A stretch of 63,865 bases of DNA, filler included. It is 6 parts of 6 records of this genome, joined end to end, with 100 filler letters (N's around TTAATTAATTAA, not from the genome) between each part and the next. Parts side by side here need not be neighbours in the genome. Positions count along the whole stretch, not along the records: positions 1 to 15,113 come from SRR31156797_43839; 5 more parts are not named here. One strand, 5' to 3'. The notes beneath the pieces were generated by a model. It did no database searches. It saw nothing but the letters and a program-made list of their open reading frames with translations, and was not told where the DNA came from. Every line of letters starts with the position of its first letter. The stretch's first letter is position 1. Position numbers and translations under genes: made by a program. This document shows positions 1,495 to 12,375 of the stretch, piece by piece.

Positions 1495-2193
1495 TTACAG
1501 AATCGCCTTCACCAGGCGCTCCACCGCTTCCACCCCGTCCGGGGCCGGTGCACTGAAATCCGTGATCTTTCCCACCACCCCGGCCACGGGCACCCCGGAG
1601 AACCGCGCCACGGCCGCCATGTTCTCCCGGACAAGGGGATCCTCCGTCCCAAGGGCGTCCATGAACACAATGCCCCCAGGCCGCAGCCCCCGGGCCCTGA
1701 GGCACTCCACCGTCATCAGGGTGTGGTTGATGGTGCCAAGGCCCGTTCTTGCGGCAATCACGGGCAGGGCATGGCACGCCTTTATAACATCCGCCATGGT
1801 CACCGATTCGGTCACCGGCACCAGGAGCCCGCCGGCCGCCTCGATCACCAGGTGGGAATGGGCGCCCTCTTTTTCCCTGATTCTTTCCAGGGTGGTTTCA
1901 GGATCGATGGTCTCTCCCATGTCACGGGCGGCGAACCAGGGGGCCTTGGGATTTTCGTGGCAATTGAGAACGGAAGGGGCCGGGTCCCGCTTTTCCAGCC
2001 CCGGGGTGTGGCGATAGACAAAGGCGGCATCCCCCCGGGCATCCAAGGGGGAGCAGCAGCCGGTCTGGAAGGGTTTGATGTAAAAAGGCGTTTGGCCCTT
2101 TCGAATCAACGCCTGCATGATCAAGAGGGAAAGAACGGTTTTACCCACATCCGTGTCCGTGCCGATCACCGCGATTTTTTGGCACACCGCCAT
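1495..2193 (-). CDS. bioD: Dethiobiotin synthetase
   Basis: GTDTDVGKT P-loop, IKPFQTG, VIEAAGGLLVP, LGTINHT motifs. Confidence 0.96.
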   Translation of the reverse strand: MAVCQKIAVIGTDTDVGKTVLSLLIMQALIRKGQTPFYIKPFQTGCCSPLDARGDAAFVYRHTPGLEKRDPAPSVLNCHENPKAPWFAARDMGETIDPETTLERIREKEGAHSHLVIEAAGGLLVPVTESVTMADVIKACHALPVIAARTGLGTINHTLMTVECLRARGLRPGGIVFMDALGTEDPLVRENMAAVARFSGVPVAGVVGKITDFSAPAPDGVEAVERLVKAIL

Positions 2194-3330
2194 CTAGCCC
2201 ACCTCCTTCAACGCGTTCACAAGGGTTTGAATATCCGCGTCCCGGTGCAGGGCGGTCATGCCCAGCCGCAGGATCGCACGGCCCCGGGGCACGGTGGGGT
2301 ACCGGGCGGAAAACGCAAGAATGCCCCGGGCAAAAAGGGCCCCGGAGACCCGGACCGCCCGTTCCTCATCCCCCATCAACACCGAAATAATGTGGGCGTC
2401 CCCGGACACCCGGAAGCCCTGCCGGGTCAAGCGATCGCACATGGCGACACTAACATCTTTCAGGGTTTTCCTGGCATCATCCCCCTGCTCCACCAATTCC
2501 AGGGCATCCACGGCCCCCAGGGCATGGGCCGGGGGAAGAGCGGTGGTGTAGATAAAGGGGGAGGCAAAATTCACCAGATATTCCTTCACCCCGGGGGGCA
2601 GCAGCACAAAGGCGCCAAACAGCCCCAGGGCCTTGCCGAATGTGCCAAGGGCAATGTCCGCCGCTCCCCGGGCAATCCCCCTGCCCTTGTCGCCCAGCAC
2701 CCCGAAGGCGTGGGCCTCATCCACCACACTGTAAAATCCGTACCGGGCCTTCAGCTGCCCCAACGCCCTTACGGGCAACAGATCCCCGTCCATGCTGAAC
2801 AGGGACTCGGTCACCACGGCCCTGTTTTCCGGGGGCGCGGCAGCCAGCCGTTTTTCCAGGTGGGCAAGATTGTTGTGGCGATATCCCTTCATGGCGGCAT
2901 TGCTGAGGACCATGCCCTTGACCGAGCTTGCATGGACATGCTTGTCAAAGAGGAGGGTATCCCCGGGTTCGAACAAGGTGGAGAGCAGCGCCAGGTTGGC
3001 CTGGTATCCGCTGGAAAAAAAGAGGGCATCTTCATACCCGAAATAATCGGCAAAGGTTTTCTCCGCCCTGGAGATGGCGTCATAATTTCCCGCCACCAGG
3101 CGGGAGGAGGACGAGGAACCAGCGCCTGAAGACGTGTAATGGGCGGCCACCCGGGCGGCCAGTTCCGGGGACGCCCCCAGGCCCAAGTAGTCATTGGAGG
3201 CAAAGCTCAGGAGCTTTCTACCGTTGACGGTCACGAACCGTCCCTCCCGTTCTTCAATCACCGGGGGATTCCGGTAGAGCCCTTCCTGTTTTTGCAGCGC
3301 TATCCGATCCCTGAACCGCTTGTCAAACAT
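2194..3330 (-). CDS. bioF: 8-amino-7-oxononanoate synthase
   Basis: FASNDYLGL, SGYQAN, ESLFSMDGD, DEAHAFG, GTFGKALG (PLP Lys), RYPTVP. Confidence 0.95.
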   Translation of the reverse strand: MFDKRFRDRIALQKQEGLYRNPPVIEEREGRFVTVNGRKLLSFASNDYLGLGASPELAARVAAHYTSSGAGSSSSSRLVAGNYDAISRAEKTFADYFGYEDALFFSSGYQANLALLSTLFEPGDTLLFDKHVHASSVKGMVLSNAAMKGYRHNNLAHLEKRLAAAPPENRAVVTESLFSMDGDLLPVRALGQLKARYGFYSVVDEAHAFGVLGDKGRGIARGAADIALGTFGKALGLFGAFVLLPPGVKEYLVNFASPFIYTTALPPAHALGAVDALELVEQGDDARKTLKDVSVAMCDRLTRQGFRVSGDAHIISVLMGDEERAVRVSGALFARGILAFSARYPTVPRGRAILRLGMTALHRDADIQTLVNALKEVG

Positions 3331-3746
3331 GCAAACACCTCCTTGTATCGCTTCCTGAGAATTGCTTCAGGAAACCTGTCGTCGTACGCGGTTACGGAAA
3401 AAACAAACCTGCCGGAGAAAGATTCATTTTCCATCTCAGCCACAAGATCGTAGGAAAAGGCCGCCTGGCTCCGTGCCGCCTGGGTGCCGGAAAGGGCCAG
3501 TGAGCCGGAGATGCGTTCCTGCAATGGAAGGGAGCACGCCTCCACCTTGAGCAGGAAGGCATGGCTTGAAAAATCCAACAGCCTGCGCACATGGAGGGCG
3601 CCCAGCTGTGCCAGGGCCTCCATGACCACAAAAGAGGGCTGATCCGCAAAGACCGCCCTTCCCCGGATGCGTGTATCATCCGCCCGGGTAACCGAGGACA
3701 GGAGATGGAACCCCGCCATGCCGGTATCTATCGCTATTCTGTCCAT
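3300..3746 (-). CDS. Hot-dog fold, FabZ/ApeP-like dehydratase half-subunit (Glu-bearing)
   Basis: PSFVVMEALAQLGAL resembles FabZ PGVLxxEAMAQ; no HFPG His loop; overlaps bioF and fabF. Confidence 0.6.
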   Translation of the reverse strand: MDRIAIDTGMAGFHLLSSVTRADDTRIRGRAVFADQPSFVVMEALAQLGALHVRRLLDFSSHAFLLKVEACSLPLQERISGSLALSGTQAARSQAAFSYDLVAEMENESFSGRFVFSVTAYDDRFPEAILRKRYKEVFACLTSGSGIG

Positions 3747-4930
3747 TTTTTCACCACCAGGGCACCGTTCTGGCCGCCGAACCCGAAATTCTCCATCAGC
3801 AGGGTGTCAAAGGCGCTCTCCCGGGTCTCCCTTACAAAATCCAACCGGGGATCGCACGGATCCGCCAGGTTTCGAACCGCCGGCACAACTCCCCTGGCCA
3901 TGAGGGAGAGGCAGATGGCAAGCTCCACCACCCCGCAGGCCGTGGACAGATGCCCGATCCAGGACTTGAGGGCCATGATCCGGGGGGATCGGCCGGGAAA
4001 CAGCCGGGCCAGCAGGGCGGCCTCCATTTCATCGTTGAGGGGGGTGCCGGTGCCGTGGGCGGACACCACATCGATATCGGAAGGCGAAAGTTGTGCCTGT
4101 CCAAGGGCCTTTGCCACCGCCGTTTCCATCCATCGGCCCGACGGTTCCGGGGCGGTCATGCCGCCGCCGTCCATGGACGCGCCGGCCCCCGCCACCTCCG
4201 CCAGGATATGAGCCCCCCGTTTCCGGGCATGGTCCAGGGCTTCCAGGACCACAAACCCGCCCCCTTCGCCAATGACGAATCCGCTGCGGCCCCGGTCAAA
4301 CGGGCGATGGACCCGGCCGGGATCCCCCGGTGCCGTGCACAAGGCCCCGGCCATCTTATAGGCAAGGGCGGCCCCCGGGTTGACGCGGCTGTCCCCTCCC
4401 CCGGCCAGGGCAAGATCGAGACGCCCTTCCCGCACCTTCCGGAACGCCTCCCCCACCACCTGCACCGTGGTGGCGCAGGCCGTGCTCAGGGTCTGGCTTT
4501 CCCCGTGAATCCCGGCAAGGGCGGCAATGGCCGCGGCCGCGGTATTGGGAAGAAAGTTCAATATCCACAGGGCGGAGAGACTAGCGGGCTCCGCTTTTCC
4601 CCCGGTCCCAAGGTCCAGGTTGGGTCCGGCCCCCACAAACAGACCGGCCTGTTCCAGCATTCCGGGGGACAGCCCGGCATTTTTGACGGCCCTGAGGGCG
4701 GCGGCCACCCCAAAGGCGGCACCCCGGTTCAAATACCGGGCGTTCTTGTATCGCCCGGTATAGGTTTTTAAATTAAACTCCGGCACCGGCGCCACCACCA
4801 CCTCCGGATCAAACCCGGGCCGTTCAAAAACGGTCCGGTTCTGTCCCATGGCGGCCATCACCGCTTCCCCGCTGTTGCCAAGGGGAGAAAAAAACCCGGC
4901 CCCGGTAATCACCACACGACGGTTCATCAT
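3734..4930 (-). CDS. fabF: Beta-ketoacyl-ACP synthase (FabF/FabB family)
   Basis: RRVVITG, STACAT (Cys), AHGTGT (His), KSWIGH (His), NFGFGGQN. Start at ATG 4930 overlaps the upstream TGA (ATGA), with GGGAGG RBS. Confidence 0.9.
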   Translation of the reverse strand: MMNRRVVITGAGFFSPLGNSGEAVMAAMGQNRTVFERPGFDPEVVVAPVPEFNLKTYTGRYKNARYLNRGAAFGVAAALRAVKNAGLSPGMLEQAGLFVGAGPNLDLGTGGKAEPASLSALWILNFLPNTAAAAIAALAGIHGESQTLSTACATTVQVVGEAFRKVREGRLDLALAGGGDSRVNPGAALAYKMAGALCTAPGDPGRVHRPFDRGRSGFVIGEGGGFVVLEALDHARKRGAHILAEVAGAGASMDGGGMTAPEPSGRWMETAVAKALGQAQLSPSDIDVVSAHGTGTPLNDEMEAALLARLFPGRSPRIMALKSWIGHLSTACGVVELAICLSLMARGVVPAVRNLADPCDPRLDFVRETRESAFDTLLMENFGFGGQNGALVVKKWTE

Positions 4931-5571
4931 GCCTCCCAATAGATCTCTTCGGGTGATTTCCGGCCGGGACCGGCCGGGGCCTCGTCCGGGAACCCCAAGG
5001 TAAGAAAACATCGCAATCCCAGGGGATCAAGCCCCGGCACCGGATGCTCCCCGTCCAGAAAATGGAGGGGCGCGGTCAGGATACAGGTGCCAAGCCCCAG
5101 GGCCACCGCCCGCAGCATGAACAACTGAAGGGAGAGGCCAATGGTGATATCCCCGTCCGTCCCCCCAAGGGCATCACCGGCCGGGATACCGGCCCGGTTC
5201 AACCGTGTGGAAAAACGCTCCCCGCCCGTTTCCCCCCCCACGGCGAACAGGGCCGGGGCATCCCACATGAACCGGGAGTGACGCCAGTAATGGTTCAGCA
5301 CATTGATGGCCTTCCTGGGTTTCGAAAGCGCTTCCGCCCGGTTCACCATCTCCCGGTATCCTGTCTCCATCCGGGTGGAGAGCCTGTGCCGAACCTCCGG
5401 AGAAACCAGGCGAACATATCTCACCGGCTGTTGGTTGGAGGGGGACGGGGCCGTATTGGCCGAAAGAATCATCTCCCGGATATGGGATTCCGGCACCGTT
5501 CTGTCCGTGTATTTCCGGATGCTTCGCCTGGCCGCGACCAGGGCGTCAAACACGTTGGTCATCTCCGGCAA
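4927..5571 (-). CDS. Nitroreductase-family FMN oxidoreductase
   Basis: RRSIRKY, APSPSNQQP, LRAVALGLGTC, LGFPDE signatures. Confidence 0.9.
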   Translation of the reverse strand: MPEMTNVFDALVAARRSIRKYTDRTVPESHIREMILSANTAPSPSNQQPVRYVRLVSPEVRHRLSTRMETGYREMVNRAEALSKPRKAINVLNHYWRHSRFMWDAPALFAVGGETGGERFSTRLNRAGIPAGDALGGTDGDITIGLSLQLFMLRAVALGLGTCILTAPLHFLDGEHPVPGLDPLGLRCFLTLGFPDEAPAGPGRKSPEEIYWEA

Positions 5572-5924
5572 TGCTCCACATAGGCAACCAGGTCCCGGAC
5601 CTTCAGGACCGGTCCCTCCCCCAGCTCCGCCACCATCTGTCCCGCCCGTTCCGCCGGAATATGGGGAAGATTTTCAATGATCGCCGCCACAGGGTCCGCC
5701 CCCCTCTCCCTTGCCGCTGCGATCATGGCCCGAAGATGTTTCAGGAAGATGTCATCGTCCCGGACCTCGATTCCGAACTCGGTGGACAGGGCCAACGCCA
5801 CCTCAAGAAGATCGATGGATTCCGCATCCAGCTCCCGCACAAGGTAACTTTCCAAAAAAATATCCCCTTCATCCAGATCCAGAATCTCCATCAGGATCGT
5901 TCTCACCCGATTAAAATACGCCAT
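5559..5924 (-). CDS. Acyl carrier protein with internal insertion (121 aa)
   Basis: ELDAESIDLLEVALALSTEFGIEV (phosphopantetheine Ser in ESID) and C-terminal LKVRDLVAYV helix. Confidence 0.85.
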   Translation of the reverse strand: MAYFNRVRTILMEILDLDEGDIFLESYLVRELDAESIDLLEVALALSTEFGIEVRDDDIFLKHLRAMIAAARERGADPVAAIIENLPHIPAERAGQMVAELGEGPVLKVRDLVAYVEHCRR

Positions 5925-5946
5925 CGCACAATTACTCCTTTACGCC

Positions 5947-6687
5947 TTATTTGCCGGCGGTGAGGCCGCCGTCCATGATGATCGCCACCCCGTTGAAGTG
6001 CCGGGCCGTGTCCGATAAAAAGAAAACCAGGGCCTGTGCCGCCTCGGCCGGTGAAATAAACCCTTCCCCCGGCATCCTTTGGACCAGGTCCCGGCCCTGC
6101 TGCTCAATAAATTGTTTTCCCCGGCCCGACGCCACATACCCCGGCCTCAGGGCCATGGCGGTGATCCCCCGTGACGCCAGCTCAAGCCCCGCACTCCGGT
6201 AGATTCCCTCGGACCCAAGCTTGGAGGCGGCGTACAGCCCCTGTCCCTTTCCGGGGCAGCCGGCCGCGGCCGAGGAGAGAAAAATCATTCGCCCGAAGCG
6301 ATGCCGGACCATGGCTCTTGTTGCCAGGCGCACCAGCTCCGCCCGGGCCGCGACATTCCCGGCCAGGTATCGGGAGAGCCGGCCCGGATCCGCAGAGGCC
6401 ACCAGGGTTTCGTAATCCCCCTGGGCCATATCCACCAAATAATCGATGTCCGGATGGTCGGAAAAGATCTCTCCCATCCGCTCCGGACGGGCCAGGTCAA
6501 AAAAGGCGGTTTGGTATTGCCCGGCCCATGGGGAGAGCCGGTCCTCGATCTTCTCCGCTCCCTTCCGGTGCCGGAAGCAGAGGATGGGAAAAAGCCCCTC
6601 CGCCATCAACAGGGGCGCGAGCGTCAGGGCGATCCCGCAGCTGCCGCCGGTGACAAGCACCTTTTTCCCCGTAAAGACAAGGTTCAT
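5947..6687 (-). CDS. fabG: 3-oxoacyl-ACP reductase-like SDR
   Basis: TGGSCGIA, FLSS, YAASK (YxxxK), PGYV, DGG C-terminus. Confidence 0.8.
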   Translation of the reverse strand: MNLVFTGKKVLVTGGSCGIALTLAPLLMAEGLFPILCFRHRKGAEKIEDRLSPWAGQYQTAFFDLARPERMGEIFSDHPDIDYLVDMAQGDYETLVASADPGRLSRYLAGNVAARAELVRLATRAMVRHRFGRMIFLSSAAAGCPGKGQGLYAASKLGSEGIYRSAGLELASRGITAMALRPGYVASGRGKQFIEQQGRDLVQRMPGEGFISPAEAAQALVFFLSDTARHFNGVAIIMDGGLTAGK

Positions 6688-6977
6688 AACACAAGCTTCC
6701 CTGTCACCACGGCCCGGTCCTTGTCAAACAGGGTGCACCGGATACCGGAGCCGTCCCCCCGCATTCCGTACCGGTACTCCCCCGGGGAGACAAACCGCCT
6801 GAACCTGAAATTGGAAACCCGCACCGGCCTTACCCGGCCCTGCCGGGCATGGACCTTGAGAAAGGCATGGATGATCACGCTTCCCGGCACCACGGGATGT
6901 CCCGGGAAATGATCCCCATAGATCCTGTCGGCCGGGTCAAAAAAAAACACCCCTTCCCGGTAAAACGAGGTATCCAT
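6684..6977 (-). CDS. Hot-dog fold, FabZ/ApeI-like dehydratase half-subunit (His-bearing)
   Basis: DHFPGHPVVPGS motif and FRRFVSPG; the catalytic Glu position is His. Confidence 0.75.
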   Translation of the reverse strand: MDTSFYREGVFFFDPADRIYGDHFPGHPVVPGSVIIHAFLKVHARQGRVRPVRVSNFRFRRFVSPGEYRYGMRGDGSGIRCTLFDKDRAVVTGKLVL

Positions 6978-7958
6978 CTAGGACGCCACCCTGAGGCCCA
7001 GGTCTTTGATCATCTCCATATCGGTCTTGATGCTCCGGCCCCGGGTGGTGAGATAATCCCCGCCCATGAAGGCGTTGGCCCCGGCCGTAAAGATAAAGGA
7101 CTGGAAATCATCGAGAATTTTTTCCCGGCCCCCGCAGATGGTGATATTCCGGGTTGGATTGATGAACCGGAACAGGGCGATGCTCTTTAACGCGTCCACG
7201 GGCGTCACCAGGGGCCTTGATGCCATGGGGGTGCCGGGAATCGGGTTGAGAAAGTTGATGGGCACGGTGTCCACATCAAGCTCCCCCAGGGTAAAGGCAA
7301 GCTCCACCCGCTGCTCCCAGGACTCACCCAGGCCCAGGATCCCCCCGCTGCATACGGAAAAACCGGCCTCCTTGGCGATCTTCACGGTCTCCACATCGTC
7401 CCGGTAATCATGGGTGGTGCAGATCCTGTCAAAATAACTTTCCGCCGTCTCCAGGTTATGGTGGTAATTGGAAATGCCCGCCTCCCGGAGCCACCTGGCC
7501 ATGGGCAGGGTCAACGCCCCCAGGGAGGCGCACACCTTGAGGGGCGTGGCCTTGCGAATCGCCTCCGCGGCCCGGCAGACGGTGTCCAGGTCACGGCCCT
7601 TAAGGCTGAATCCGCTGGTGACCATGGAAAAATGGGTGGCGCCCTGCCCCGCCATGCGCACAGCGGTTTCCAGGATTTCATCCACCCCGCGCATGGGATA
7701 GGTTTCAACGTCGGTGCGGTGAAAGGAGGACTGGGCGCAATAGGCGCAATCCTCGGAACAGCGACCGGACTTGGCATTGATGATGGCGCATGAGAAGATC
7801 CGGTCCCCTGTCTCTTTCTCCCGGATCTTTCCCGCACAGCCGATCATGTAAAACAGATCCGCCCCGGAGACCCGGGTAAGCTCCAGCGCCTCCTCCCGGG
7901 TGATCCGACCGTCGGTCAAGATTTTTTCCGCAAGAACGGAAATAGCAATTTTGAACAT
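6978..7958 (-). CDS. bioB: Biotin synthase
   Basis: Radical SAM CSEDCAYC, YHHNLET, CSGGILGLGES, VPINFL, GDYLTT. Confidence 0.97.
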   Translation of the reverse strand: MFKIAISVLAEKILTDGRITREEALELTRVSGADLFYMIGCAGKIREKETGDRIFSCAIINAKSGRCSEDCAYCAQSSFHRTDVETYPMRGVDEILETAVRMAGQGATHFSMVTSGFSLKGRDLDTVCRAAEAIRKATPLKVCASLGALTLPMARWLREAGISNYHHNLETAESYFDRICTTHDYRDDVETVKIAKEAGFSVCSGGILGLGESWEQRVELAFTLGELDVDTVPINFLNPIPGTPMASRPLVTPVDALKSIALFRFINPTRNITICGGREKILDDFQSFIFTAGANAFMGGDYLTTRGRSIKTDMEMIKDLGLRVAS

Positions 7959-8013
7959 GGCTCCTCTCGATTTTCAGTTTTTTGTTTGCTGTATGGGATC
8001 AAATATGCACCAC

Positions 8014-8047
8014 ATTGTCAACTCAAATCTTATACAGGGTTGACAAT
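8014..8047. promoter_or_regulatory. BirA operator (bioO) upstream of bioB
   Basis: ATTGTCAAC-N16-GTTGACAAT perfect inverted repeat matching the TGTxAAC-N14/16-GTTxACA BirA consensus. Confidence 0.9.
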
Positions 8048-8065
8048 ACAAAACGGAACAGGTGT

Positions 8066-8108
8066 ATGGGAAATAGAGAAACACGGCTTAATCTGCTGGA
8101 ATCCAACC
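8066..8108 (+). pseudogene. birA: birA 5' remnant
   Basis: MGNRETRLNLLESN versus intact BirA N-terminus [14 protein letters not shown]; similarity stops after ~14 codons. Confidence 0.8.
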
Positions 8109-8237
8109 CAAAACACATTCTCAGGGTAACGCATGTAATAATTATGGGAAAAACGATACATACTTATGTGAATCTCGTCCCCCACCCCAAACCATATCCC
8201 ATTGAAATTGCAAACAAACCACTTCCCCTTATCACTC

Positions 8238-8253
8238 CGGCACAATAATTGCT
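8238..8253 (+). promoter_or_regulatory. Sigma54 (-24/-12) promoter
   Basis: CGGCAC-AATAA-TTGCT matches YGGCAC-N5-TTGCW, ~35 nt before the riboswitch. Confidence 0.8.
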
Positions 8254-8286
8254 TTTTTATTCTGATTCTGCAGCATTTAGCAAACA

Positions 8287-8366
8287 GCCCGCGACAAAGC
8301 CAAATCCTGTGCAAACAGGAGACGGAAAGCCATGGGGTCTGTGGGAGACAGCCCGGCTGCCGGGGC
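8287..8366 (+). ncRNA. Cyclic di-GMP-I (GEMM-I) riboswitch
   Basis: CGACAAAG-CC-AAA-TCCTGT-GCAA-ACAGGA-GACGG-AAAGCC...GGTCT-GTGGG-AGACAGCC-CGGCTGCCG. P2 with GNRA loop, covarying CC/GG pairs, P3 and GCCC/GGGC P1; sits in the 5' UTR. Confidence 0.88.
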
Positions 8367-8390
8367 CATTCATTAAAAAAGGAGACGTTG

Positions 8391-9236
8391 ATGATCCATC
8401 TTAAAAGGCTTGTTACTCTTTTGCTCATCCCACTGTTCCTGTGGGGTGTTGCCGGAACCGCAGGGGCATCAATCTCGGAAGGGGATTTTGCTTATGTCTG
8501 GTATGAATACACGGTTTCCGGTGAAGATGATCAGTCGGGTTTCTTCCTTGACGAACACGTTGGGAAGGACTTGCATGATTTCGGAACGGTGGAGGTGAAC
8601 AGCCGGCTCTCTTTCTTTGCGCCGGAGTCCAACTACGCCAGGGCTGAGCTGGTTCATAAAGATGTGGACTATGCAAAAGGCGCAGGCGTTCAGATCGATG
8701 TGGATCCTTGGGCCCATCCGGAATCCTTTTCTGGTGGAACGGGATGGGCGGACGCCTATGCTGAAATATATTTTTCAAAAGAGTTTGAGATAACAGCATC
8801 AGGGTATGCGGCCCTGGGCTTCTCCCTGGACGGGTGGCTCGAAGCCTCGGGGGCAGCCGAAGCGAATTGGTCTTATGTCGCTGCCGACAATTTCGACAGC
8901 TTTTTTGAAGATAGGGATTCCATAACGAATGCATCCATGGATGTGGATATCCAAGAGCTGTTTACCTATTCCTTTTCGGAAGATGATATCGGCGAGATCC
9001 TGTCGGTGGGATTTTTGCTCCAGATATATGCGGGCTTTACCGGCGAGGATGGCGGCATGACCGGCCGGGCGATGGCGGACTTCATGGACACCATGTCGAT
9101 CGATTTCATATCCGGGGGACTTGCCAATGCAGGGGGGGATGAAGTGCCGGTTCACCCCACGCCTGTTCCGGCGGCTGCCTGGCTTTTGCTCTCCGGCCTG
9201 TTAAGCCTGATCGGCTTAAGAAATAAGATCGGTTAG
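8391..9236 (+). CDS. Secreted acidic protein with VPLPA/PEP-CTERM sorting signal
   Basis: AAGGAG RBS, signal peptide ...GTAGA, C-terminal PTPVPAAAWLLLSGLLSLIGLRNK. Confidence 0.88.
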   Translation: MIHLKRLVTLLLIPLFLWGVAGTAGASISEGDFAYVWYEYTVSGEDDQSGFFLDEHVGKDLHDFGTVEVNSRLSFFAPESNYARAELVHKDVDYAKGAGVQIDVDPWAHPESFSGGTGWADAYAEIYFSKEFEITASGYAALGFSLDGWLEASGAAEANWSYVAADNFDSFFEDRDSITNASMDVDIQELFTYSFSEDDIGEILSVGFLLQIYAGFTGEDGGMTGRAMADFMDTMSIDFISGGLANAGGDEVPVHPTPVPAAAWLLLSGLLSLIGLRNKIG

Positions 9237-9262
9237 CTCACCTGACCACCTTTGCTTTCATC

Positions 9263-9296
9263 AAGGCGGGGGCCATGGCGCCCGCCTTTCCTGTTT
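9263..9296 (+). terminator. Rho-independent terminator
   Basis: AAGGCGGG...CCCGCCTT stem followed by T-rich tail, between convergent genes. Confidence 0.7.
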
Positions 9297-9306
9297 TCCG
9301 GCGGCG

Positions 9307-9699
9307 CTATTCCCTTCCCCGGGGATATTTCAATTCTATCACCAACACGATTTTCCGTTTTCCGTTTCCCGGTTCAAAGCGGAGGGAGAACAGAACGCTC
9401 ACCTTTATCGCCCGGAGCCGGGGATATGGCTCTCGTTCCCCCATACCGGCGGAGAGGATGCGCCATCCCCTCCGCTTCAACCCGGCTCGGTAAAAGTCAA
9501 CCACCTCTTCCGGGCTGGCGCCCATAGCAAAGACAGTCTTTACAGAATCCCTGGTATACCGGGTCTCAAGCGGTTCCGCCCCCTGAAAAACCGGCACCGA
9601 TTTACCGAACTCCCGGGGGAGGGTATGGTTGCACCAGGCCAGGCCGGCAAAGAGGAGCATACCGATAATGGGAATCATGATGGGGATTCGGCGAATCAT
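9307..9699 (-). CDS. Hypothetical exported protein
   Basis: AGGAGG RBS, N-terminal signal-like MIRRIPIMIPIIGMLLFAGLAW, EVVDFYRAGLKRRGW. Confidence 0.65.
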   Translation of the reverse strand: MIRRIPIMIPIIGMLLFAGLAWCNHTLPREFGKSVPVFQGAEPLETRYTRDSVKTVFAMGASPEEVVDFYRAGLKRRGWRILSAGMGEREPYPRLRAIKVSVLFSLRFEPGNGKRKIVLVIELKYPRGRE

Positions 9700-9975
9700 T
9701 CTTCCCCTCCTTTTTCCAAAGGGGGTGTATCCCGAAACGGATGGCATAATCTTTTCCCCGTCCCCCCTGTCTTACGAGGAAAAGATCACGCTCCAATCCT
9801 GTTGAGGGGCAATCGTCCCCACGGATCACTCAATTCCGCTGAAAATCGCGTTCCCGAGCTGCTTGAACGAGTTTCTGGAATGGCCCCGGAAGGTGGGATC
9901 AATCCCTATACCAATTCAGAGAGATGACGTGGAATTGCAATATGAAGCAGGGGTTTCCCCTTGAATCGCTCTTTT

Positions 9976-10104
9976 TTTGTTTGCCGTATGGGATCAAATA
10001 TGCTTTATATTGTCAACTCAAAATTCAAACAAGGTTGACAATACGAAACGGAAACAGGTGCATGGGAAATCGAGAAACATTACTGAACCTATTGAAATCC
10101 AACC
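9976..10104 (+). repeat. Direct repeat copy 2 (operator + birA start)
   Basis: See copy 1 at 7981-8108. Confidence 0.92.
10008..10043. promoter_or_regulatory. BirA operator upstream of birA-bioA
   Basis: TATTGTCAAC-N16-GTTGACAATA. Confidence 0.9.
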
Positions 10105-11054
10105 AGAACCGCTGGGTCTCCGGAGAGGTGCTGCGCCAGCACCTGGGGATCAGCCGGAATGCCGTGTCCAAGCACATCCGCACCCTCAGGGCCACCGGAT
10201 ATGAGATCCGGTCCGCCCCCCGGAAGGGATATCTCCTCCATGGCATAAAGGATCGCATCATCCCGGAAGAGATCCGGGACGGCCTTGCCACCACGGTGTT
10301 TGGCAAGCAGGAAATCCGCTGCTTCACGGAGACCGATTCCACCAGCCGGCAGGCCCGGGCCCTTGCCGATGACGGTGCCGGGGAGGGCGCCCTCATCCTT
10401 GCGGAAAGCCAGACCCATGGCCGGGGCAGAAAGGGCCGCGCCTGGTTCACCCCAAAGGGAGAGGGGATCTTCATGTCCATGATCCTGAGGCCCCCCATCG
10501 CCCCCATGGACGCCTCCCGGCTCACCCTGGTCACGGCCGTGGCCCTGGCCGAAGCCCTGATCGATACCACCGGGCTTGCGATCCGGATCAAATGGCCCAA
10601 CGATATTTTGTGCAAAGGGAAAAAGCTGGCCGGGATTCTCACGGAACTCAGCACGGAGATGGACGCGGTGAACCATGTGATCATCGGCCTGGGGCTCAAC
10701 GTCAACACCCCCCGGGAGGCGTTCCCGGAGGAACTCAGGGCTAAAGCCTCCTCCCTCCTTGCGGAATCGGGCAGGGTCCACTCCCGCTGCCTTCTCACCA
10801 AACGTTTTCTGGAACGGTTCGAGGGCCATTACACCACCCTGACCAATGACGGTTTTCCCGATCTCCTTGACCGGTGGAAGGCCCTCTCCGACACCCTGGG
10901 CCAACGGGTGTGCGTGGAGATGATCGGCAAACGCCTCACCGGCACCATCCGGGACCTGGATCCCAACGGTTTCCTGGTCCTCGAGGACGAAGCCGGCGTG
11001 CATCACCGCATCCTGTCCGGGGATCTCATACCATTGACAGGGAAAGACGCATGA
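10062..11054 (+). CDS. birA: Bifunctional biotin operon repressor/biotin-protein ligase
   Basis: N-terminal wHTH ([21 protein letters not shown]), [23 protein letters not shown]. Confidence 0.96.
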
Positions 11055-11095
11055 ACGAAAACGCGATCGTAAAATGGGCAGGCAAAAAGAAATGA
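11051..11095 (+). other. 14-codon mini-ORF coupled to birA and bioA
   Basis: ATG overlaps the birA TGA; its TGA overlaps the bio[18 protein letters not shown]. Confidence 0.4.
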
Positions 11096-12375
11096 ACCAA
11101 TGCGAAATATTGAAAACCGACCGGGAACTTCTCTGGCACCCCTACACCTCCATGGTCGATCCCCTGCCGGTCTACCCGGTGGTGGGGGCATCCGGTGTCC
11201 GGCTCGAGCTTGAAGACGGCAGATGCCTCATCGACGGCATGTCTTCCTGGTGGGCGGCCATCCACGGGTACAACCATCCGGTCCTGAACCAGGCGGCCCA
11301 CCAACAGATCAACGCCTTCTCCCACGTCATGTTCGGGGGCATCACCCACAGGCCCGCGGCCGAGCTGGGCAAGCTCCTGGTGGAGATCACCCCCGGGGGC
11401 CTTGAGCAGGTGTTCCTGGCCGACTCCGGCTCCGTCGCCGTGGAGGTGGCCATCAAGATGGCGATCCAATACTGGTTTGCCTTAGGCCGTCCCGAAAAGA
11501 ACCGGCTTTTGACCATCCGCCGGGGCTACCACGGGGACACCACCGGGGCCATGTCCGTGTGCGACCCGGTCACGGGCATGCACGGCATCTTCACCGGCAT
11601 CCTGCCAAAGCAATTGTTTGCCGACGCCCCGGCCATCCCCTTTGGCGAAAAGTTCCGGGAAGCGGATATCCAGAGCATGAAAACCCTCCTGGAAGCCCGC
11701 CACCCGGAGATCGCCGCCGTGATCCTGGAACCCATTGTCCAGGGGGCCGGCGGCATGCGGTTCTACACCCCGGGATACCTGAAACGGGTGAGGGAACTCT
11801 GCGACCAATACGAGGTGCTCCTGATCTGTGACGAGATCGCCACGGGATTCGGCCGCACCGGCAAGCTGTTCGCCTGCGACCATGCCGGGATCCGCCCGGA
11901 CATCCTCTGCCTGGGCAAGGCGCTCACCGGCGGGTACATGACCCTGGCCGCCACCCTCACCACCCGGCGGATCAGCCACGCCATCTCGGAAGAAGGAAGA
12001 TCCGTGTTCATGCACGGCCCCACCTTCATGGGCAATCCCCTGGCCTGCGCCGTTGCCCTGGCCAGCATCCGCCTGCTCCTTACGAGCCCCTGGCAGGCAA
12101 CCGTGGCCCGGATCGAAACCCAAATGAAAAAGGAGCTTGCCCCCTGCCGGGACCTTCCCCAGGTGCAGGCGGTGCGGGTGCTGGGCGCCATCGGCGTGGT
12201 GGAAATGAAAAAACCGGTCAACATGGGAGAGATCCAGAAGCGCTTTGTCGAAAAAGGGGTGTGGGTGAGACCCTTTGGCAGGCTGATCTACATCATGCCG
12301 CCCTACATCATCTCCCCCGGCGACCTGAGTATACTCACCCGGGCCCTGGTTGAAGTGGTCAGCCGGGAACACTGA
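11092..12375 (+). CDS. bioA: Adenosylmethionine-8-amino-7-oxononanoate aminotransferase
   Basis: [45 protein letters not shown]. Confidence 0.97.

Follow-up and report, generated by a model that had tools for sequence, protein, structure and literature searches.

The Desulfovibrio bio operon contains additional fatty-acid-like genes, and Rodionov et al. 2004 proposed that these produce the pimelate part of biotin (PMC545781). Growth of Desulfovibrio vulgaris Hildenborough without biotin was later reported to need the cluster DVU2558-DVU2565 and, as the only gene outside the bio cluster, the nitroreductase gene DVU1220, whose product is predicted to carry flavin mononucleotide (FMN) and a 4Fe-4S cluster (PMC10102598). 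According to the same report, by Trotter et al. 2023, the clusters found in Syntrophobacter fumaroxidans MPOB and in Desulfobacter vibrioformis DSM 8776 hold a nitroreductase-like gene, the two products sharing more than 40% identity and being far removed from DVU1220, and a role as enoyl-acyl carrier protein (ACP) reductase was suggested for these in-cluster nitroreductases (PMC10102598). Here we describe a further gene of this kind, located on the minus strand at 4927-5562 of a 63.9-kb stretch of DNA, the whole of which is referred to as the window; coordinates without another label are positions in it.

We give about an even chance to the reading that this gene encodes an FMN-dependent, nitroreductase-fold enoyl-ACP reductase of a biotin-regulated mini fatty-acid synthase that makes pimeloyl-ACP. 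The reading is put forward because all other activities of the elongation cycle are encoded in the same operon, and the nitroreductase is the one extra conserved gene. An earlier note on this DNA had offered the protein as a candidate new enoyl-ACP reductase; the same role had already been suggested by Trotter et al. 2023 (PMC10102598), and gene family, location and hypothesis are therefore all published, the window protein being a further member of the described group. In full-text searches, which covered literature other than subscription journals, only that paper and its preprint addressed the role of the in-cluster nitroreductase. The two genes of Trotter et al. belong to the same subfamily and occupy the same position relative to ACP and beta-ketoacyl-ACP synthase (KS), the difference being that they come from organisms other than that of the window. 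Between the window protein and its D. vibrioformis DSM 8776 counterpart identity is 66%, well above 40%, and the closest loci, at 67-68% identity, are from metagenome-assembled genomes (MAGs) of Desulfobacterium sp.

The nitroreductase gene, its family and its neighbours

The longest open reading frame (ORF), 4927-5571 on the minus strand, encodes 214 amino acids when counted from TTG 5571. This ORF, on which the earlier note was centred, exists and matches Pfam family PF00881 with an E of 3e-21, but both the sequence and the alignment of homologues move its start to ATG 5562, which leaves 211 amino acids. The gene is therefore described as follows.

4927-5562, minus strand: nitroreductase-fold FMN protein, candidate enoyl-ACP reductase, 211 amino acids (PF00881, homologue alignment, AlphaFold2 (AF2) model)

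The ATG at 5562 overlaps the stop codon of the ACP gene (TGA 5559-5561) as ATGA, and the stop codon of the nitroreductase gene (TGA 4927-4929) overlaps the start codon of the KS gene (ATG 4930, MMNRRVVITG...) in the same form, NCBIfam FabF models starting at residue 28 of the long KS ORF. Because the nitroreductase and KS starts were re-placed at ATG 5562 and ATG 4930, the overlaps with the ACP and fabF-like genes, which had been pointed out before, are real and amount to 4 nt each; values of 13 and 85 nt would hold only for the longest ORFs. Overlaps of 4 nt in the form ATGA are typical of translational coupling, and the nitroreductase gene appears to be coupled in this way on both sides.

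The protein scores 76.8 bits against PF00881 (E 3e-21, cut-off 23.5) and is a member of that family. An AF2 model built on 22 subfamily sequences (mean pLDDT 86.6, pTM 0.83) gave 192 PDB matches at E of at most 0.001 in Foldseek, those listed being all nitroreductase-fold or related flavoproteins with TM of at most 0.81, and model and search together assign the protein to the alpha+beta nitroreductase (NTR) fold. When PDB sequences were searched with a profile, the best matches were 3eo8 (E 2e-24) and 3gfa (E 3e-24), followed by iodotyrosine deiodinases, and the weaker ones included CLA-ER (4qlx) and albonoursin synthase. The first two, from structural genomics of Clostridium difficile, are the best full-length profile matches and also the best fold matches (TM 0.76-0.81), yet they are uncharacterised nitroreductases with 20-22% identity and no known biotin context. 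No signal of PF13561, PF12241 or PF03060 was detected in the protein, which places it outside the FabI/FabL/FabV and FabK classes, as had been anticipated. FabI, FabL and FabV, which are short-chain dehydrogenases/reductases (SDRs), and FabK, an FMN TIM barrel, catalyse the reaction proposed here with a fold unrelated to that of the nitroreductase. FabK uses FMN as the hydride carrier in enoyl-ACP reduction, as the nitroreductase would.

An alignment of 22 subfamily members has the FMN-phosphate-type residues R12, R13, S14 and R16 (the N-terminal RRSxR motif) and a PSPSNxQP motif conserved without or almost without exception; its invariant positions include R12, R13, S14, R16, P39, S40, N43, V47, R48, G156-L157-G158-x-C160 and T163-A164-P165. 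C160, R48 and the nearly invariant R94 are candidates for the proton donor. A collection of 5.8 billion proteins contained 36 clusters of the subfamily, at E of 4e-107 to 1e-33 and 41-80% identity, with the next match at E 1e-11 and 28%, and the subfamily profile retrieved 64 proteins at E of at most 1e-30 and 19,461 at E of at most 0.001 from 1.84 billion representatives. Judged by sequence, the nitroreductase thus belongs to a small, discrete subfamily.

Synteny was examined by tblastn with the window proteins in the best 80 of 110 relatives found by the subfamily profile in contigs of one genome per species, a locus being testable when it had at least 450 nt of flank on the side in question. 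Because these 80 loci were collected by searching for the nitroreductase, all of them contain it by design, and evidence comes from its position alone. The ACP gene lies directly upstream of the nitroreductase gene in 72 of 73 testable loci, the exception (L018, 1539-8001) having a 6.4-kb insertion between the two, and the KS gene lies directly downstream in 76 of 78, the exceptions being L073, where the contig ends, and L053, where a bioB-bioA-ACP-NTR operon is followed by unrelated genes and KS is found elsewhere. Most of the loci also contain the other cluster genes, truncated contigs notwithstanding (hotdog-2 in 65, hotdog-1 in 64, ketoreductase (KR) in 62, bioF in 62, bioD in 54, bioB in 45). 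The opposite strand carries bioB in 13 of the 80, at a distance of about 2.5-4 kb from the module and with ACP-NTR-KS intact, and in some further loci bioB is absent from the stretch examined, ACP-NTR-KS being contiguous there too. Six Syntrophus-type loci (L009, L015, L019, L021, L026 and L038) are without KR between hotdog-1 and ACP. Because ACP-NTR survives in L053 and ACP-NTR-KS in the loci in which bioB is displaced, the nitroreductase is linked to the carrier and condensing module. The loci are labelled as Desulfobacterales, Syntrophales, Syntrophobacterales, Desulfarculales and unclassified delta-proteobacteria/Thermodesulfobacteriota, together with one bin labelled Methanosarcinaceae. 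The latter, L057, is a MAG labelled Methanosarcinaceae archaeon that holds a complete bacterial-type module, and its archaeal label is likely the result of binning contamination.

There is precedent in the fold for the proposed chemistry. The closest characterised structural match of the nitroreductase is FbiB's C-terminal domain (4xoo, TM 0.75-0.81; 4xoo, 4xom and 4xoq together, TM 0.72-0.81). This domain, likewise an FMN protein of the NTR fold, is described as reducing the carboxylate-conjugated C=C of dehydro-F420-0 by hydride transfer from FMNH2, and in docking the methylene came to lie over flavin N5 while an arginine held the carboxylate (PMC6450877). FbiB differs in that identity is 18-20% and only about 70 N-terminal residues align, in its substrate, in its fusion to a glutamyl ligase and in having no dependence on ACP. 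CLA-ER of Lactobacillus plantarum (PDB 4qlx, titled nitroreductase family/enone reductase) is reported to act on 10-oxo-trans-11 fatty acids, whose enone C=C it hydrogenates (PMC13365329). It therefore resembles the proposed enzyme in reducing a carbonyl-conjugated C=C in a fatty-acyl chain; however, its profile match (E 3.2e-6) covers residues 3-67 only and its substrates are free fatty acids, not ACP thioesters.

The operon and its presumed control by biotin

The nitroreductase gene is the fifth of nine tightly packed genes on the minus strand (1495-7958), in the order bioB, hotdog-1, KR, ACP, NTR, KS, hotdog-2, bioF and bioD, and it therefore sits inside an extended bio cluster with ACP, KS, KR and FabZ-like genes. 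The other features of the locus are the following.

8014-8047, no strand: BirA-operator-like perfect inverted repeat, ATTGTCAAC-N16-GTTGACAAT, 56 nt upstream of bioB (inverted-repeat scan)
6978-7958, minus strand: bioB, biotin synthase, first gene of the operon (PF04055, PF06968)
6684-6977, minus strand: hotdog subunit 1, short, 97 amino acids (PF07977 22.9 bits; FabZ NCBIfam E 2e-4)
5947-6687, minus strand: FabG-like 3-ketoacyl-ACP reductase, SDR (PF00106 E 3.7e-25; YAASK motif)
5559-5924, minus strand: dedicated ACP, 121 amino acids (PF00550 E 2e-6)
3734-4930, minus strand: FabF-like beta-ketoacyl-ACP synthase, 398 amino acids from ATG 4930 (PF00109, PF02801)
3300-3746, minus strand: candidate hotdog subunit 2, 148 amino acids (kept in 65 of 80 loci; EALAQ helix)
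2194-3330, minus strand: bioF, 8-amino-7-oxononanoate synthase, which consumes pimeloyl-ACP (PF00155 E 5e-46; position conserved in loci)
1495-2193, minus strand: bioD, dethiobiotin synthetase (PF13500 E 1.3e-37)
9924-11054, plus strand: birA, helix-turn-helix (HTH) and biotin ligase, divergent (PF08279, PF03099, PF02237)
11074-12375, plus strand: bioA, divergent (PF00202)

Pfam and NCBIfam matches to a FabF-like KS, an SDR, a FabZ-like hotdog protein and an ACP bear out the earlier description of the module as encoding KS, KR, dehydratase (DH) and ACP. It is also correct that no FabI or FabK is encoded there, and when E. coli FabI and a FabK-like protein were used as tblastn queries, the whole window gave no match at E of at most 0.01. 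The nitroreductase gene is not, as had been stated, the sole gene left unassigned, because the 148-residue ORF at 3300-3746 has no match in Pfam or NCBIfam either.

The KS reaches 278 bits against TIGR03150, for which the cut-off is 493.75, and is a divergent FabF. The SDR is matched best by the FabG models of NCBIfam, yet below their cut-offs, and carries a YAASK (YxxxK) motif, the spacing of which we take to be that of the KR type and not that of the FabI type (Yx6K). An exchange of roles, with enoyl reduction by the SDR and ketoreduction by the nitroreductase, was considered and is unlikely because of this spacing and the best match to FabG. Hotdog-1 falls just below the cut-off of PF07977 (22.9 bits, cut-off 23) and has the FabZ-type histidine motif DHFPGHPVVPG with no glutamate helix. 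In hotdog-2, alignment A2 revealed an invariant E43-A46-Q47 helix of EALAQ type, together with H52 and R54, that resembles the glutamate helix of FabZ. Because the histidine motif of the one and the glutamate-type helix of the other are complementary, their sequences suggest a heterodimeric dehydratase in which the two subunits share one composite active site. The ACP is below the cut-off of every NCBIfam ACP model that it matches; it has an invariant Ser36 in ESID (alignment A3), and its carrier domain is followed by a C-terminal extension, conserved and about 45 residues long (...R93...GPVLKV.DL..Y), which is also present in the Desulfovibrio-type locus L132.

A pathway that follows Trotter et al. 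2023 can be proposed from these assignments, in which the FabF-like KS would condense malonyl units on the dedicated ACP, the SDR would reduce the 3-keto group and the two-subunit hotdog dehydratase would yield a 2-enoyl thioester. The nitroreductase, reduced by NAD(P)H or another donor, would then deliver a hydride from its flavin N5 to the C3 position, first of glutaconyl-ACP and afterwards of 2,3-dehydropimeloyl-ACP, so that two turns would give pimeloyl-ACP for BioF.

Of 138 loci, 20 have the pattern TTGTMAAC-N12-20-GTTKACAA immediately upstream of bioB or, in Syntrophus, of bioA. The repeat at 8014-8047 is similar in form to the delta-proteobacterial BirA operator that has been described (PMC545781). 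In the window there was no match to the BirA half-sites of the published consensus, TGTAAACC...GGTTTACA. The repeat is probably a BirA operator, and from the operator-like repeat, its recurrence and the divergent HTH-birA gene we infer that biotin very probably represses the operon and with it the nitroreductase gene. Upstream of bioB, in a region of lower GC content (0.48), lie two overlapping ORFs of 132 and 169 amino acids (8030-8934, minus strand), the first of them overlapping the operator-like repeat. They had no match in Pfam or NCBIfam and no tblastn match in the 80 related loci, and may be spurious or a strain-specific insert.

Weighing the enoyl-reductase role

The enoyl-reduction role proposed in the earlier note draws support from synteny, the operon, the precedent in the fold and a predicted contact with ACP that passed the threshold weakly; the gene is not universal among clusters, and the activity itself is assigned by inference. 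The contact was predicted with two nitroreductase copies, two FMN and the ACP, alignments being unused. Median ipSAE was 0.36 (0.38, 0.36 and 0.35), the best control giving 0.00, which ranks as weak support, with a partner pLDDT of at least 89 and at least 92% of contacts shared between runs. In a calibration without a riding ligand such as FMN, 51 of 78 solved complexes attained the mark that was applied, as did 2 of 108 mismatched pairs, and scores of at most 0.60 had been obtained for only 5 of the 78 solved complexes and for all 4 mismatches that passed. The prediction shifts the balance only slightly.

Several observations weigh against the enoyl-reductase assignment. In addition to the weak pass of the ACP-binding prediction, an older test had 7 of 44 blind-drawn neighbouring gene pairs reaching the mark, and the retrieval of the loci through the nitroreductase leaves only its position as evidence. 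The protein is below the cut-off of every NCBIfam model. The best match, to the FbiB C-terminal domain model TIGR03553, has 43.7 bits against a cut-off of 249.55 and aligns residues 12-84 with profile positions 3-74 of 194, that is, the N-terminal third only, and the scores for the BluB (TIGR02476, 27.5 bits, cut-off 150), NfsA (NF008033, 30.3 bits, cut-off 223) and RutE-type malonic semialdehyde reductase (NF003768, 33.5 bits, cut-off 152) models are below their cut-offs too. No fusion with ACP, KS or DH turned up among relatives of 371-2000 residues at E of at most 1e-15, an absence that is weak evidence. DVU1220 shares the superfamily and a genetic requirement in biotin synthesis, but it is described as unlinked to the bio cluster, with an Fe-S domain, and is only a distant relative (PMC10102598). 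Some hosts (G005, G406 and G409) own FabK- or FabI-like genes that could do the step. The role would accordingly have to be read from context, fold precedent and a weak predicted interaction with ACP, with no characterised orthologue as a guide.

The gene is also missing from some clusters. In a reverse test, a hotdog-2 profile (alignment A2) matched 8 of 401 genomes sampled from the phylum, and an orthologue of the nitroreductase was present in 5 of the 7 checked (G373 was left out), namely in G001 and G005 by origin, and in G236, G343 and G349 at E of 1e-83 to 1e-88. The remaining two, G182 and G348, had no orthologue genome-wide (best E 4e-9). Their clusters have the order KR-ACP-KS-hotdog-2-bioF, with KS directly after ACP, which is the Desulfovibrio-type architecture of the literature. 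The expectation of conservation in homologous clusters is thus borne out for the fixed ACP-NTR-KS position and fails for the Desulfovibrio-type clusters, and an in-cluster nitroreductase is not universal.

The alternative that survives best, which we nevertheless consider unlikely, is that the nitroreductase serves the pimeloyl-ACP module in another redox step, such as the forming or unmasking of the primer or a flavin/electron relay, with enoyl reduction taking place elsewhere. Such a role would suit a gene that is linked most tightly to ACP (72/73) and KS (76/78), not to KR or DH, and that keeps the ACP-NTR-KS arrangement in the six Syntrophus-type loci from which KR is gone. It could also bear on the priming with, and tolerance of, a chain with a free omega-carboxyl group, left unexplained in the account of Trotter et al. 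(PMC10102598), and the superfamily is versatile enough, its members also carrying out deiodination, BluB chemistry and flavin or carbonyl reduction (RutE-type match E 2.8e-8). However, enoyl reduction is the sole required step from malonyl to pimeloyl that would otherwise be without a candidate, and among characterised proteins the nearest in structure reduces a C=C bond.

It is less probable again that enoyl reduction is done by an enzyme encoded outside the cluster (FabK, FabI or an unrecognised one), the nitroreductase being an accessory for protection, repair or improvement. Housekeeping reductases were examined in ten cluster-bearing genomes, G001-G005 and G405-G409. In the first five, the E. 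coli FabI query returned generic SDRs only (best 50.6 bits, 29% identity), and the top PF13561 matches of G001, G003 and G004 with the best of G002 (10 proteins) were FabG-like or other SDRs. Full-length stand-alone FabK-like genes were found in G005 only, in three copies (241-265 bits), and the other matches of nitronate-monooxygenase type in these five were weak or inside ORFs of 1968-3930 amino acids. FabV (PF12241) was found in none of the five, a result that is uninformative because the control genomes gave none either. Among G405-G409, stand-alone FabK-like genes are present in G406 and G409 (2/5) and a FabI-like gene in G406 (1/5, 208 bits). Canonical reductases were undetected in 6 of the 10 genomes, including two complete chromosomes, and the hosts concerned must therefore own an unrecognised housekeeping reductase.

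The FabK- or FabI-like genes of G005, G406 and G409 and the housekeeping reductase that the other genomes must own both favour an outside enzyme, as does the acyl-CoA-dehydrogenase-family gene in the fab cluster of S. buswellii. The BioC/BioH and BioZ routes rely on housekeeping reductases. Moreover, an outside enzyme is the alternative named by Trotter et al. with reference to the essential gene DVU2064, and Desulfovibrio-type clusters function without an in-cluster copy (PMC10102598). On the other side, the gene keeps its place and its translational coupling in different orders of Thermodesulfobacteriota, which speaks for a core role, and the other elongation activities all have dedicated copies, which suggests that housekeeping enzymes refuse omega-carboxy substrates, a point also made in PMC10102598. 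Furthermore, the D. vulgaris nitroreductase mutant is reported to be a biotin auxotroph with its fatty-acid reductase intact (PMC10102598).

In the complete genome of S. buswellii no FabI, FabK or FabV was found. The region around its best FabG (L118) was considered as a fab cluster and is not one; the real cluster is in L123 (G003:C1:331000-350900), at 5356-11797 on the minus strand of that stretch, and includes the only FabD gene of the genome. It comprises KS, FabZ-like, FabG, FabA-like and FabH genes, a gene for an acyl-CoA-dehydrogenase-family protein of 398 amino acids and FabD, and the acyl-CoA-dehydrogenase-family gene stands at the place expected for an enoyl reductase.

Finally, it is very improbable that the nitroreductase acts outside the pimelate module, supplying BioB with electrons or reduced flavin for its radical-SAM reaction, because, although the gene shares an operon with bioB in the window and the Fe-S domain of DVU1220 would suit electron transfer (PMC10102598), the in-cluster nitroreductases are without such a domain and ACP-NTR-KS is contiguous throughout, including where bioB is on the opposite strand (13/80) or absent from the stretch.

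Enoyl-ACP reduction remains the most economical role for the nitroreductase, and with substrate, electron donor and reaction all assigned indirectly we regard this reading as evenly poised between right and wrong. Somewhat more tentatively, and just short of an even chance in our estimate, the subfamily would constitute a fifth structural class of enoyl-ACP reductase (NTR fold, FMN), specialised for omega-carboxy-enoyl-ACPs on a private ACP, which would complete a methyl-ester-free route to pimeloyl-ACP in anaerobes. The question addressed is the source of pimelate in anaerobes without BioC/BioH, BioW, BioI or BioZ, and proof of the role would close a long-standing gap in anaerobic biotin synthesis. 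It would add a new fold to the four known classes of enoyl-ACP reductase, which are antibiotic targets, and would make the nine-gene operon a complete, portable and oxygen-independent pimeloyl-ACP pathway open to reconstitution. Lineages such as Syntrophus and Desulfobacter, where searches for FabI, FabK and FabV found none, would then rely on non-canonical reductases for acyl-ACP chemistry generally. The strict ACP-NTR-KS unit, the probable control by BirA and the hosts without detected canonical reductases sharpen the published suggestion, which does not make the idea a new one.

Other nitroreductase-family genes in the host genomes

In G182, one of the two genomes with a nitroreductase-less cluster, a gene at 776-1603 of locus L137 encodes a fusion of 276 amino acids between a two-cluster ferredoxin domain (two CxxCxxCxxxCP motifs) and a nitroreductase domain, and the other such genome, G348, has an orthologue of 54% identity (G348:C11:13522-14337). 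Of four genomes that carry the in-cluster nitroreductase, G001, G005 and G343 gave no close relative of the fusion, and G003 has a relative of 30% identity. The fusion fits the published description of DVU1220 and may be its orthologue, which is a guess from two probably related genomes.

A gene of D. vibrioformis (G001:C5, L139 4933-19089) encodes a hybrid polyketide synthase/nonribosomal peptide synthetase (NRPS) of 4718 amino acids with the domain order KS, acyltransferase, DH, KR, ACP, condensation (C), adenylation (A), nitroreductase and peptidyl carrier protein (PCP), after which the best stretches listed show another adenylation domain at 3733-4085 and a methyltransferase domain at 4375-4541. 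Its nitroreductase domain was considered as an in-line enoyl reductase and set aside because it sits between A and PCP of the NRPS module. We take this C-A-NTR-PCP place to be the known position of oxidase-type domains. Nitroreductase-related domains in NRPS modules act on carrier-bound thioesters.

A second, unrelated nitroreductase-family gene was also noted about 1.6 kb downstream of bioD in the Syntrophus locus L009 (13766-14518; 250 amino acids, PF00881 E 4e-33), and such a second gene is likewise found near the module in the Syntrophus loci L019 (13913-14470) and L021 (8826-9380).

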